Shown here one piece after another: positions 1,478 through 7,550 of a stretch of DNA of 64,000 bases (the first letter of the stretch is position 1; each line of letters begins with the position of its first letter). The DNA is taken from assembly GCA_963727505.1 (NCBI GenBank), contig CAVSGP010000014.1, positions 32,001 to 96,000 on the forward strand, given 5' to 3'. The stretch comes from an uncultured Trueperaceae bacterium. Its GTDB lineage: Bacteria; Deinococcota; Deinococci; Deinococcales; Trueperaceae. The notes beneath the pieces are model-generated. The model did no database searches. It saw only the letters and a list, made by a program, of their open reading frames with translations, and was not told the DNA's origin. Position numbers and translations under genes: made by a program.

Positions 1478-2236
1478 TCAGCGCTTCTGCGGCGAGAGCA
1501 GCGGCGCCAGGTTCATGCCGCTGAGGTAGGCCAGGAACGACGGCAGGATCGGCAGCACGCAGGGGGAGAGGAAGGACAGGGCGCCGGCCCCGAAGGCCAG
1601 CGCCAGCGTGGGCGCGGCCATGGTGCCGAACAGGGCGCTCTCGGCGCTCCCCATGTTGGCCAGGTAGGGGGACAGCGCGTTGAGCGCGCCGGTCAGCAGC
1701 AGCACGCCCACGGCGATGAGCAACACCGCCCCGACCTTCTCGAGCACGCCCGAGTAGCGCCGCAGTGCCCGCGTCAGCGGCAGGAGCTGGGACAGGGCCA
1801 GGAACGGCAGCGAGAAGCCGAGCGAGTAGGCCAGCAACAGGAGCCCTCCCTGCGCCCCGCCGCCGCTGGTGGCCGCGATGCCCAGGATGCCGGCCAGGAT
1901 GGGACCGATGCAGGGCGTCCAGCCCGCGGCGAAGGCGACGCCCACCACCGCCGAGCCCAGGTAGCCGCTCGGCTTGCGCATGAGGTGCACGCGCAGCTCC
2001 TGCTTGAACACCGGCAGCGGCACCACGTCCAGCATGATGACGCCCATCACCACCAGCAGTACCCCGGAGACGACGCGCAGGGCGCTGCCGTAGGCGAACA
2101 GGAGCTGGCTCAGCAGCCCGGCGCTGAAGCCCAGCGCCACGAACACCGCCGAAAGGCCGGCGACGAAGGCCAAGGTGTGGAGGGCCAGGTGGACCCGCAG
2201 CGGGAGCCCGGTCTCGGCGCTCGCCTCCGTCCTCAT
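1478..2236 (-). CDS. ccdA: CcdA/DsbD-beta family thiol-disulfide transporter, circularly permuted
   Basis: Six hydrophobic segments. Both Pro-Cys motifs are present (GWTPCIGPIL and AGALSFLSPCVLPILP), but the normally N-terminal SPCVLP helix lies at the C-terminus. Confidence 0.85.
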   Translation of the reverse strand: MRTEASAETGLPLRVHLALHTLAFVAGLSAVFVALGFSAGLLSQLLFAYGSALRVVSGVLLVVMGVIMLDVVPLPVFKQELRVHLMRKPSGYLGSAVVGVAFAAGWTPCIGPILAGILGIAATSGGGAQGGLLLLAYSLGFSLPFLALSQLLPLTRALRRYSGVLEKVGAVLLIAVGVLLLTGALNALSPYLANMGSAESALFGTMAAPTLALAFGAGALSFLSPCVLPILPSFLAYLSGMNLAPLLSPQKR

Positions 2237-2260: not shown

Positions 2261-3154
2261 TCATAGCGACGCTAGCTGACTGCGCACGTCTTGCGCGAGC
2301 TCGCGACCCAGCTCGTCGGCCTCCTTGGCCTCCCCGCTGACGCTGGCCTGCAGGGTCGTCTCGCCACGCAGCACGGCGCCGAACAGCGTCAGCTCGCCGT
2401 CGTCGGTGACGTTCGCCAGCGCGCCGACCACGCACTCGCGGCAGGCCTCGTCGCTCTCGGGCGGGCCCTGCCGCAGGGAGAAAGCGAAGGAGCGCTCGGC
2501 ACGCACGCGGTCGAAGCTGGGGCGGTGCTGCAGCGAGTAGGCCACCTCGAACGCGAGGTCATCGTCGGCGCGCACCAGCAGCCCCAGGGCGCCCTGACCG
2601 GGCGCCGGGGCGAAGGTCTCGGGATCGAGCACGTTGTCGAGCCGATTGCGATGGTCCAGCACGATGAGAGTGGCGGCGGGGACCAGCAGCCCGTCCAGTT
2701 CGCCGGAGGTCAGCAGCTTGAGGTCCCCTTCGATGGAGCCGGATACCTCGACGGCCTCGACGCCTCGATGCTGGCCGGCCAGGTAGGCGGCGTCCCGTGG
2801 CGTCAACACCCCCACGCGGGCACCCTGGGGCAGGTCGGACAGCGCGCGCGTGCCCTTGGTGACCAGCGCAGTACGCGGCTCCAGCCGGCGTGACACGGCC
2901 GCCAGCGTGACCTCCTCGGGCAGCGCCAGGGGGAGCGTCTCGAGCGGGGCCACCGCCACGCCGATCTCCCCGTTCACCAAGGCCTTCAGGAGGGGATCGT
3001 CACCGTCGGCCGGCTTCGCGGCAGCGTTCTTGATGGTGCGGAGGGCGAAGTTCACGTCCGGCCACTCGTCCGTCAGTTGCTCGAGCACTTCCCGAGCCTG
3101 GCGCAGCGCGAGTGCGCCGTCGCGGTTGCCCAGCACGATTCTTGCCATGGCCAT
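2261..3154 (-). CDS. HemC (porphobilinogen deaminase)-fold protein with degenerate active site
   Basis: LALRQA, LPQGARVG, PAPGQGALG and AERSF match HemC. The HSxKD, GTSSLRR, RGNxxTR and GGC motifs are absent. Confidence 0.8.
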   Translation of the reverse strand: MAMARIVLGNRDGALALRQAREVLEQLTDEWPDVNFALRTIKNAAAKPADGDDPLLKALVNGEIGVAVAPLETLPLALPEEVTLAAVSRRLEPRTALVTKGTRALSDLPQGARVGVLTPRDAAYLAGQHRGVEAVEVSGSIEGDLKLLTSGELDGLLVPAATLIVLDHRNRLDNVLDPETFAPAPGQGALGLLVRADDDLAFEVAYSLQHRPSFDRVRAERSFAFSLRQGPPESDEACRECVVGALANVTDDGELTLFGAVLRGETTLQASVSGEAKEADELGRELAQDVRSQLASL

Positions 3155-3299
3155 GTTGTATCACATTCGGCTGCGCCTGCGGATGCGAGAAAGCACTTGT
3201 GGAAGGGCATCGGTGGCGAGCGGGAAGGGCGGCGGACGCCAACGTGCGGGCGCCGCCCGCGGCCGTACCAGCGCCGCCGCCGAGGGCCCGTGCGGATGC

Positions 3300-4630: not shown

Positions 4631-4731
4631 CCGGGTTGGGCTGTTCCGGGTTGGGGTGTTCCGGGTTGGGGTGTTCCTGGTTGGGGTGTTCCTGGTTGGG
4701 TTGTTCCTGGTTGCGTTGTTCCGGGTTGCGT
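4631..4731. repeat. 15-bp tandem repeat (CCKGGTTGGGGTGTT-like), 6 full units plus a partial, G-rich
   Basis: Units start at 4631, 4646, 4661, 4676, 4691, 4706 and 4721. It lies in the spacer between divergent metK and the GNAT gene. Confidence 0.95.
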
Positions 4732-4818: not shown

Positions 4819-5403
4819 ATGCCGGATACCCACGTGGGGCACGCCATCCGCCGAGCGCGCCCAGGCGACGCCCAGGAGATCGTCCGGCTCATGCGCACGA
4901 TCTACAGGGAGGGGCGCTACTTCGTCGGTAATGGCCCGCCGCTCGCCGAGTCGCTGGCCCGTCGCATCGCCGGTGACGACCCGTCGTACGCCCTGTACCT
5001 GGTGGCGGAGTGCGGGCAGGGTGATGTGCGCGAGGGCGACGGGCGCGAGGGTGATGTGCCCGATCGTGATGTGCGCGAGGGCGATGTGCGCGAGGTGGGG
5101 GCGTGGCTCGAGCTCCACCGCATGCAGCCGCGCCGCATGCAGCATGTCGCGGTGCTCACGGTGGCGGTGGCCCCCGCGTGGCGCCACAGGGGTCTGGGCC
5201 GGGGCCTGTTGCGGCGCAGCTACGCCTGGGCGGCCGAGGTCGGGGTGAGCAAGATCAGCCTCAACGTGCGCGCCGGGAACACTTCCGCCATCGCCCTCTA
5301 TCGCTCCGAGGGGTTCCTGGAGGAGGGGCGTGAGCAGGGGCAGGTGCGCACGGACGACGGTGGGTTCGAGGACAACGTGATCATGGGACGCAGGTTGCCC
5401 TGA
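4819..5403 (+). CDS. GNAT family N-acetyltransferase
   Basis: IRRARPGDA, VAPAWRHRGLGRGLL (motif A) and VRAGNTSAIALYRSEGF. TATACT lies 5 nt before ATG 4819. Confidence 0.9.
   Translation: MPDTHVGHAIRRARPGDAQEIVRLMRTIYREGRYFVGNGPPLAESLARRIAGDDPSYALYLVAECGQGDVREGDGREGDVPDRDVREGDVREVGAWLELHRMQPRRMQHVAVLTVAVAPAWRHRGLGRGLLRRSYAWAAEVGVSKISLNVRAGNTSAIALYRSEGFLEEGREQGQVRTDDGGFEDNVIMGRRLP
5017..5091 (+). repeat. In-frame 15-bp tandem repeat (GAGGGCGATGTGCGC-like x5; EGDVR) inside the GNAT gene
   Basis: Five degenerate units encoding QGDVR EGDGR EGDVP DRDVR EGDVR. Confidence 0.9.
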
Positions 5404-6036: not shown

Positions 6037-6065
6037 GCCGATCCGTGGCCTAACCGATCCGTGGC

Positions 6066-7550
6066 CTAACCGACCCGATCTGCGCAGGTGCTGGGCCGCA
6101 CGGGCCAGGCCAACCCGGGCGCTGGTGTGGGCGCTGGTGTGCGCGCTGACGTGGGTGCTGACGTGGGCGTCGCCGCGGGCGTCGCGGACGCAGCGCTCTT
6201 CGTGTCGGGCGCGCTTGCAGCGGCCCCCCAACTGCCGTCCACGCTTTCCAGGTAATCGTAGGTCGCGCCGATCACGTCCAGCCACGCGCCGTAGACGGCG
6301 TTCTCGCGTGCGAGCAGGGCGCGGCAGGCGCTCGGCGAGGTGGCGGGCGTGGCGGCGGTGTCCCGCCAGGCGGCGAGCTCGGCTTCGAGCAGCGCGGACG
6401 CGTCGTCGACGGCAGTCCGGGCGCGTGCGACATCGGCCGCGAAGCTCGCGTCCAGCGCGTCGAGCGCGGCCCGGGCGCGCCTGACGCGCTCGACGGCGGA
6501 GCTCCGGGCCGAATCGGCGCCGCCGTCGAGCCGTAGCCGTGCACGGAGCTCGATGCTCCACTGATCGTCCGCCTGCGGGCCTAGCTGACCGTTGAGATCG
6601 GCGGCGGGCCGGCCGCGATCGAGCGACAGCGAGGTGCTCACCTGGTAACCGACGCTGCTCGACTCGTAGGTGGCGCTCAGCGTCACGTCGCGTAGCACGT
6701 CGAAGGGCACGCGGTCGCGCTCCGCAGTCGCGCGCTCCAGCTCCAGGCGCAGCCGCTCCCGCTGGGGCGCCGTCGCGGCCGGTGGCGGCAATGCGAAGCG
6801 CAGCGGCACGAACTGCGCGGCGCCCGCGAAACCGAGTCGGGCGGCCTGCGTTCGCAGCGCCTGCAGCGCGTGGCGGCGCCCGTCGACCAGGGCCTCGGTG
6901 CGGAGCAGGGAGGGGCTCGATCGGGTGGCGTTCGATCGGGTGGCGTTCGACGGGGCGGCCCGCGTGGTCGCATGGAGCCGTTCCCTCGCAAGGTCGAGTT
7001 CAGCCCGCTGCACCGCCACTTCCGCCCTCAGCGCCTTGGCTTGGAGCCTCAGCGCGGCCAGGACGTCGCTGCGCCGTGCGTGACGTAGCCGCTCGCGGGC
7101 CAGGAGCAGATCGGCGCGGTCGGCCAGGATCGCGGCGTTGTCGTAGCGCCATGCCAGGTCGAGCTCCAGGTCGGCGCGGGCCCCCAGCGCGGCGGGGTCC
7201 TCCACGTCGGCGCCGTAGCTCAGGGCGGGACGGGCCGTGAACGTGACGTCGGTGCCGGCACGGCTGACGCCGAGCGCGCGTTCGGCGTCAGCGACCGCTG
7301 CCGCCTGCCGAAGGGAGCGCTCGCTGTCGGGCGTCGACGTCAGAACGTCGGCGGGCGCGAACGCCAGCACGAACGGCGCGCACAAGAACGTGGCAAGGCA
7401 GACGGCCGCGTGCGGTCGACGGCGGGCACGCCGGCGGAGGGCGCCCCGGCGAACGGCACGCCAAGCGCCGGCACGCCAACCGGCTCCTGGCGGGGGCGTG
7501 CGGGTGGGAGCGCCGCCTGGGTGCTCGGTAGCGCTGACGAGATCCCCCAT
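6066..7550 (-). CDS. Putative exported TolC/outer-membrane-efflux-like protein (start uncertain)
   Basis: Hydrophobic signal-like stretch, then alternating coiled-coil helices and beta-strand-like segments (VTLSATYE..YQVSTSLSL; WSIELRARLRL). Family call is by pattern only. Confidence 0.45.
   Translation of the reverse strand: MGDLVSATEHPGGAPTRTPPPGAGWRAGAWRAVRRGALRRRARRRPHAAVCLATFLCAPFVLAFAPADVLTSTPDSERSLRQAAAVADAERALGVSRAGTDVTFTARPALSYGADVEDPAALGARADLELDLAWRYDNAAILADRADLLLARERLRHARRSDVLAALRLQAKALRAEVAVQRAELDLARERLHATTRAAPSNATRSNATRSSPSLLRTEALVDGRRHALQALRTQAARLGFAGAAQFVPLRFALPPPAATAPQRERLRLELERATAERDRVPFDVLRDVTLSATYESSSVGYQVSTSLSLDRGRPAADLNGQLGPQADDQWSIELRARLRLDGGADSARSSAVERVRRARAALDALDASFAADVARARTAVDDASALLEAELAAWRDTAATPATSPSACRALLARENAVYGAWLDVIGATYDYLESVDGSWGAAASAPDTKSAASATPAATPTSAPTSARTPAPTPAPGLAWPVRPSTCADRVG

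Follow-up and report, generated by a model that had tools for sequence, protein, structure and literature searches.

HemC, the porphobilinogen (PBG) deaminase or PBGD, is known from textbooks as a monomeric enzyme and commonly serves as a marker of heme synthesis; the residues whose roles are considered below are, in the E. coli numbering, Asp84, Lys83, Arg132, Arg149, Arg155, Arg176 and Cys242. Enzyme-derived non-catalytic subunits are known with other folds, such as HisZ, a pseudo-HisRS that regulates HisG, or MAT2B, the regulator of MAT2A, and offer an analogy only. According to section 7.5 of PMC13564367, the dipyrromethane cofactor of the monomeric HemC is held covalently by a conserved cysteine. 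In plants, HEMC (SPL42 in rice) binds RNA-editing factors in the plastid and provides an example of a HemC protein acting as a protein-binding factor outside tetrapyrrole synthesis. However, it is still a working enzyme, its MORF and PPR partners are plant-specific and no dead stand-alone form is described in the accessible text of that work (PMC9866984). In the same phylum as the locus studied here, the accessible text of another work describes three catalytically dead enzyme homologues kept by T. thermophilus, GdhA, APRTh and ADLP, as regulators; ADLP is presented there as a duplicate that binds a known enzyme encoded next door (bioRxiv 10.1101/2025.10.31.685773). Searches of mainly open literature gave neither a paper about a dead HemC nor one about the HemC of Deinococcota, and a HemC partner could already figure in proteomic or interaction tables from Thermus or Deinococcus.

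The window analysed here, a stretch of 64,000 nucleotides from an uncultured Trueperaceae bacterium, carries a dead HemC homologue that is a real and conserved pseudoenzyme, with its motifs lost, its fold and frame intact and its sequence under purifying selection. The gene, called hemC* hereafter (protein HemC*), and its neighbours are as follows.

1478..2236, minus strand: circularly permuted CcdA, the downstream neighbour (assigned by Pfam)
2261..3154, minus strand: hemC*, encoding a HemC-fold pseudoenzyme of 297 aa when read from the first ATG; the more probable start, the ATG at 3148, gives 295 aa
3300..4472, minus strand: metK, encoding the SAM synthetase (assigned by Pfam), a usual neighbour in the HemC* family only

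Translation of 2261-3154 on the minus strand runs without a stop over 297 aa, in agreement with the intact frame claimed in an earlier, sequence-only reading of this DNA. The HemC fold proposed there is borne out by a Pfam profile search (PF01379, 101.8 bits, cut-off 22.1), by the matches among solved structures, which are all PBG deaminases (17/17), and by an AlphaFold2 model built on a 90-sequence alignment (mean pLDDT 95.2, pTM 0.92). The three-domain PBGD fold is present in this model, which gives TM scores of 0.82-0.87 with bacterial PBGDs (0.86 with the E. coli PBG deaminase). Thus, HemC* resembles the described HemC/PBGD proteins (PF01379 and PF03900; TIGR00212; PDB 1pda and 4mlq) in its fold, its PAxGQG and AERxF motifs, R11, R120 and its direct descent from an active HemC, but it lacks the catalytic Asp and the cofactor loop, has four basic cleft residues lost or reversed, scores below the cut-off of the hemC equivalog TIGR00212 (134.9 bits against 164) and is kept without PBG supply. 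Its closest relatives, taken as the best 120 of 1779 protein-search matches (8000 candidates), are 53-94% identical to it, and 90 sequences of the HemC* family align with 31 invariant columns and a mean identity of 58%. Family f1 is called Trueperaceae-like here because some of these best 120 matches are labelled Deinococcales or Trueperaceae at source; Thermus-like (g19), Deinococcus-like (g17) and Meiothermus-like (g22, g56, g57) are labels that we presume, in part from gene order. Met3 is found in 117 of the 121 aligned proteins and Met1 in 22, and the true start is probably the second ATG (3148, MARIV, 295 aa), 6 nt past a conserved -10-like motif.

The changes in hemC* were read from alignments to the B. 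megaterium PBGD and to one active relative. They agree with all the motif replacements that the sequence-only reading had listed, with the missing KGLF loop (T-x-G-D/KGLF) and with the retained PAPGQGALG and AERSF.

2936..2950, minus strand: APLET in place of HSxKD (residues 69-73); the catalytic Asp is gone and the Lys position is acidic, E/D in 118/121
2792..2812, minus strand: GVLTPRD in place of GTSSxRR (115-121); R120 is kept in 121/121 and the second Arg has become D121 in 121/121
2720..2743, minus strand: SGSIEGDL in place of RGNxDTRL (138-145); both arginines are gone
2657..2674, minus strand: ATLIVL in place of AGLxRL (161-166); the arginine is gone
2432..2443, minus strand: CxxC (C238, C241) in the loop that holds the cofactor cysteine in active HemC, a feature of genus g1

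Extended to the orthologues, the comparison shows that these motif losses span the whole HemC* family. HSxKD is found in none of 156 family sequences, a partly redundant set (hemC* has T73), versus 123 of 127 outside HemCs; the SSxRR motif and the GC-x-x-P cofactor loop are also at 0/156 and RGN at 2/156. The four motifs (HSxKD, SSxRR, GC loop and RGN) are all present in 12/12 active orthologues and in 23/23 operon-type HemCs. Of the cleft arginines, the HemC* family retains R11 and R120 but has lost the second of SSxRR and those of TRL and GLxRL. With its catalytic motifs gone, the protein almost certainly lacks HMB synthase activity as far as sequence can tell, in line with the earlier statement that it cannot polymerise porphobilinogen.

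The second, canonical hemC for which the sequence-only reading had advised a search does exist in this genome. It lies on contig C15 (TIGR00212, 270 bits) in a cluster ordered hemA-hemC-hemD-hemB-two-component-hemE-hemF-hemH, where hemE and hemF are names that we presume from the translations. The hemD and hemB genes of this contig contain low-complexity insertions. HemC* shares 43% identity, along its whole length, with an active HemC from a g19 genome, but 28% over 190 aa with the canonical HemC of its own genome. A tree was built from 125 sequences, of which 70 came from the loci, 15 were near representatives and 40 were far ones drawn at random. In it, a native clade of 62 sequences joins the dead proteins to the active single HemCs of families f2, f3 and f4 with a support of 1.0, and the 23 operon-type HemCs of f1, f4 and f5 form a separate clade, also with a support of 1.0, among the outside HemCs. 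The hemC-fur gene order is common to the dead f4 copies and to the active g19 and f3 copies. On this phylogeny, hemC* was inherited vertically, is orthologous to the single, active HemC of Thermus-/Deinococcus-like genomes and is not a copy of the operon hemC found in the same genome; the two belong to different clades, and an origin of hemC* by duplication is not what is found. That the dead gene is the native orthologue and the working hemC a member of another clade goes beyond the earlier reading. In G169, the second intact hemC (L161, G169:C13:48334-49212) scores 140 bits as against 53-106 for the usual operon clade, which suggests a separate acquisition.

The distribution of hemC* was tallied in 102 family genomes, each at least 85% complete; one of them is G281, an unpublished genome that has both hemC* and HemB and on which no conclusion rests. 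The gene is full length in 81 of them, partial because cut by the assembly in 2 and absent from 19, and only one of the 81 full-length matches, that of G277, has a stop, the frame of the other 80 being open. HemB is found in 79 of the 102 genomes. All the 23 genomes that lack it keep hemC*, including 14/14 of genus g12, three of these 23 holders being assigned by subtraction of tallies (Fisher p=0.006 for the 2x2 table of HemB absence and hemC* retention, in which relatives are not independent). Among the HemB-less holders tested, hemA and hemD are each absent in 4/4; ferrochelatase is absent in the single-contig genome G020 and kept in three other HemB-less genomes, and heme-copper oxidases are found in 5/5 HemB-less genomes tested. 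Three genomes of three other families (G143, G151, G188) likewise have a dead copy only and no HemB. In genus g20, none of 5 genomes has hemC*, and four of them (89-94% complete) have neither HemB nor any HemC. The absence of a detectable HemB points to apparent heme auxotrophy in genus g12 (G020, G264-G276), in G143, G151 and G188 and in genus g20. In the single-contig genome G287, hemC* is cleanly gone and metK runs straight into tlpA and ccdA. This deletion, and the absence of the gene from 19/102 family genomes and 5/5 g20 genomes, indicate that hemC* is dispensable. The survival of the gene without heme synthesis was missed by the sequence-only reading, and hemC* very probably has a selected function that is independent of this pathway. 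Since a dead orthologue is kept in genomes devoid of the heme pathway, annotation over-calls heme synthesis there; several HemC* relatives are named hydroxymethylbilane synthase at source.

Degenerate copies of the native orthologue also occur in the Meiothermus-like group, family f5, G153 (f3) and G143; the congener of the last, G142, has an intact one. Each dead-copy genome examined either has a second hemC or misses HemB. Where the native copy is the sole hemC, its motifs are intact in the genomes checked for motif integrity, a minority of the single-copy ones, save for an apparent frameshift in two g19 assemblies. In these two, at L147 (G198) and L152 (G205), the native gene is interrupted near codon 46, owing to a sequencing error or to a real frameshift. 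A single origin of all dead copies is rejected by the AU test (p=0.0006, 39 sequences), as is the grouping of f1, f4 and f5 as one dead group (p=0.006), with 2000 replicates, below the number advised by the program. A tree without the fast f1 branch, which also leaves out G153 and G138, pairs G143 with G142 (99%), dead f4 with active f4 (95%) and f5 with f2 (100%). Together with the rejected single origin, these pairings imply at least three losses, so that catalysis was lost independently at least three times in the native orthologue, and perhaps five. A long stem branch (0.5-0.8) leads to the HemC* family, whose cleft has acquired new invariant residues (D121, E/D72), and the position of the family within the native clade is unstable, with f5 in two analyses and with f4 in another; for this reason neither a sister group nor an exact number of losses is claimed. 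Unlike ADLP, HemC* is an original orthologue of the enzyme, which died several times in different gene neighbourhoods.

The earlier reading had proposed a check for neutral decay, and none is seen: hemC* is under purifying selection, with dN/dS values of 0.17-0.36 in six pairs (Nei-Gojobori), to be compared with 0.29 and 0.31 for canonical hemC and with 0.07 and 0.16 for metK. These values are probably biased upward by the high GC content. The gene also has a putative promoter of its own, at the following site.

3155..3163, minus strand: extended -10-like motif TGATACAAC, 6 nt before the ATG at 3148; its last base is C/A and not the usual T

The consensus TGnTAnAA is found 4-22 nt from the start in 35 of 41 family loci (out of 42) and in 0 of 369 upstream control windows, and TAnnnT is similarly positioned ahead of 20 orthologues, active and dead, examined in the other families. 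Its position just before the start points to a leaderless transcript that would begin at the ATG 3148, separate from that of metK, and hemC* would thus have its own leaderless promoter. The last base of the motif is C or A in 33 of the 35 motif-bearing loci, and T in 186 of 312 comparable sites genome-wide; such a non-T motif may mark a promoter that is weak by design, or else the site of a regulator. In this genome the motif forms an imperfect palindrome. A sigma-70 scan finds no two-hexamer promoter at hemC*, and no regulon is evident for the variant motif, whose 13 sites in this genome precede mixed genes. One metatranscriptome (0.06 word share) yields two short relative-derived contigs over 2510-2736 and 2969-3162, which are no proof of transcription.

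Compared with outside HemCs, a more diverse set for which only the pattern along the chain is meaningful, conservation in HemC* is highest at residues 205-216, 249-260, 268-279, 192-203, 29-40 and 285-296 and lowest around the cleft. In these alignments, the conserved part of the chain is therefore no longer the cleft but residues 192-216 and 249-296. Three stretches deserve mention.

2492..2572, minus strand: residues 195-221, the most conserved stretch of the family, at the end of domain 1, the hinge and the first helix of domain 3
2288..2410, minus strand: strands and last helix of domain 3, residues 249-289, with the clade-specific E278, E285 and D289
3056..3067, minus strand: EWPD at the end of helix 1; W31 is invariant in active and dead clade members

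The stretch 195-221 comprises an acidic triplet, F202, E203 and Y206, followed by QHRPSFDR, and is a candidate binding surface that would be exposed to solvent. About ten positions besides the start Met are common to the active and dead members of the clade and rare in the 127 outside and 23 operon HemCs, the clade-specific residues being R21, W31, T40, R169, D199, A205, Y206, R216, E278, E285 and D289. According to the architecture of PBGD and the secondary structure of the model, they may form one exposed face. The clade is also more acidic, with a net charge per 100 aa of -3.3 for its active members and -4.7 and -5.1 for its dead members; the operon clade has -1.3 and the outside HemCs have +0.2.

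These observations lead to the reading preferred here, to which we give a probability of about 0.5: HemC would be a two-function protein throughout the phylum Deinococcota, the working single enzymes of Thermus-/Deinococcus-like genomes included, with a conserved partner-binding surface serving a heme-unrelated process. This second function would have been isolated three to five times as stand-alone pseudoenzymes, and the cleft of the HemC* family would have been rewired for cofactor-free stability or for a new ligand. The ancestral Deinococcota HemC would have had a second, non-catalytic job; once catalysis passed to a second hemC or the cell gave up heme synthesis, this job alone would still be selected. 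HemC* could then act as a cofactor-free scaffold, either a protein-binding adaptor or a regulatory subunit. Binding would involve the acidic and aromatic face formed by domain 1, the hinge and domain 3 (W31, D199, E203, Y206, R211-R216 and E278/E285/D289), and the empty cleft may be held without cofactor by the pairing of E72 and D121 with the remaining R11 and R120. It seems likely that the function of hemC* is common to the active orthologue; that it consists in binding a protein partner through such a scaffold, a job also of the active enzyme, stands at even odds. On the other hand, the clade-specific arginines, acids and aromatics could be the legacy of a thermophilic ancestor, forming salt bridges and stacks inside the protein, and the long stem of the HemC* family with its new invariant cleft residues also fits a new, family-specific function. 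The repeated loss of catalysis with retention of the gene amounts to a natural experiment, which suggests that the active HemC of two genetically tractable model genera has a second role so far hidden. The main value of hemC* lies in the evidence from its evolution that the HemC of Deinococcota would have a second function.

Other explanations place the function in the former active site. The sequence-only reading had drawn attention to the CxxC, and the pair is indeed present at 2432-2443 (C241 at 2432-2434, C238 at 2441-2443), near the position of the cofactor cysteine but out of register with it in the alignment to the active relative. As the functional key, it does not hold: the orthologues that this reading wished to see aligned have CxxC in 14 of 121 HemC* proteins, query included, and in the corresponding loop of 0 of 33 non-g1 family loci. 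The cofactor loop is deleted or shortened in most HemC* relatives; genus g1 being nested among them in the tree, the CxxC looks like a late gain, probably in a re-lengthened loop, and not like a relic of the cofactor cysteine. Within g1, both cysteines are fixed in an otherwise freely varying loop in 9 of 10 genomes and are lost jointly in G007, which suggests a disulfide or a metal site; the g1 CxxC is most likely a loop-closing disulfide or a redox/metal switch. A functional centre at this site, a metal site or a redox relay that might reach the adjacent CcdA, would be in line with the presence of ccdA directly downstream of hemC* in all ten g1 loci, without the tlpA of other lineages. However, G007 and G019 have the same ccdA arrangement and no CxxC, and a pair that is confined to g1 and missing from 107 of the 121 proteins cannot explain the retention of the gene across the family, so that a CxxC-centred role is highly unlikely. 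Alternatively, the remodelled cleft could bind another small molecule, as a sensor, or catalyse another reaction. R11 (120/121), R120 (121/121), D121 (121/121) and acidic residue 72 (118/121) are nearly invariant in HemC*; the fold is that of type II periplasmic-binding proteins, solute-binding proteins and HisG come next after PBGDs in a fold search with the hemC* model, and R11/R120 with E72/D121 could hold a zwitterion, for example an amino acid. Ligand-sensing pseudoenzymes are also described in T. thermophilus, in the accessible text of bioRxiv 10.1101/2025.10.31.685773. Yet the remainder of the cleft (62-73, 136-147 and 157-168) is less conserved in the HemC* family than in outside HemCs, and the dead lineages differ there: D121 and acidic residue 72 are invariant in the HemC* family, whereas the others keep the second Arg and the Lys. 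There is thus no cleft chemistry common to all, and a shared function is likelier outside the cleft than in it; a cleft-based role for HemC* appears unlikely.

The ancestry of the protein and its retention in all 23 HemB-less family genomes would also agree with a chaperone or sensor for the binding or traffic of tetrapyrroles (PBG, HMB, porphyrins or imported heme), the more so since HemB-less genomes with heme-copper oxidases must handle imported heme or porphyrin. This is quite unlikely given that the cationic cleft for pyrrole carboxylates is neutralised or reversed in the HemC* family and that HemB-less cells can do without HemC*, as the four g20 genomes without HemB and any HemC indicate. 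A regulatory subunit of the adjacent SAM synthetase MetK would have a parallel in ADLP (TT_C1082), which regulates the adjacent CoA transferase TT_C1083 (bioRxiv 10.1101/2025.10.31.685773, accessible text), and metK adjoins hemC* in 34 of 42 family loci. However, no metK link is seen in the other families examined, hemC* has its own promoter motif and it is convergent to metK in 2 of the 34 adjacent loci. A comparison of MetK between 32 holders and 5 non-holders gives four differing positions; as 21 of 500 random sets also reach four and the holder G296 departs from the holder consensus at 3/4 of these positions, this signal follows lineage, and a MetK-bound role is very unlikely. Finally, a slowly decaying relic without function would account for the losses in 19/102 family genomes and for a few very divergent representatives (P0133, P0135, P0136), but dN/dS is well below 1 and equal to that of working hemC, the frames are open in all but one of the full-length copies, and the invariant columns and the promoter motif are conserved; this reading, barely tenable, is already largely refuted.

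Candidate partners of HemC* that were tried have been rejected. HemD is absent from 4/4 holders tested. The elongation factor EF-G2 is present in the non-holders G287, G224 and G021 and was not found in the holders G296, G012, G235 and G143. The Fur/PerR-like neighbour of f3 and f4 has at most 38% identity in 26 family genomes, and matches of 48-50% in g20 non-holders. The protein of about 80 aa encoded upstream of dead f4 copies is found in 38 of 101 family genomes, in 0/14 of g12 and in non-holders. Fused HemC* forms are also missing, which is weak evidence, the 57 longer matches among 8000 candidates being ordinary HemA/HemC/HemD/CysG-type fusions (at most 184 bits), and a search of the ESM Atlas with HemC* returned ordinary HemC clusters only.

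The permuted CcdA is probably not functionally tied to hemC*, and its gene stays when hemC* is deleted (G287). Its residues 210-247 correspond to 5VKV 4-41 and its residues 20-192 to 5VKV 42-210. This order is found in 18/18 complete family copies, with tlpA directly upstream in 8, and the literature search found no paper on it. The unannotated protein of 80 aa mentioned above (L100, G000:C6:101633-101881; L045; L057-L059) has no Pfam match and occurs in 173 of 299 genomes of the phylum; it is encoded upstream of the dead hemC in f4 loci and upstream of a proB-like gene in the present genome. The gene at 2-1399 on the plus strand encodes a second elongation factor G of the EF-G2 type, 40% identical to the other copy and patchy in the family. 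On the other side of metK, arrays of 15-bp tandem repeats are found at 4631-4728 (6.5 copies) and 5018-5095 (5.2 copies), one between metK and a GNAT-like gene and one inside the GNAT-like frame, and further short tandem arrays lie at 6038-7213.
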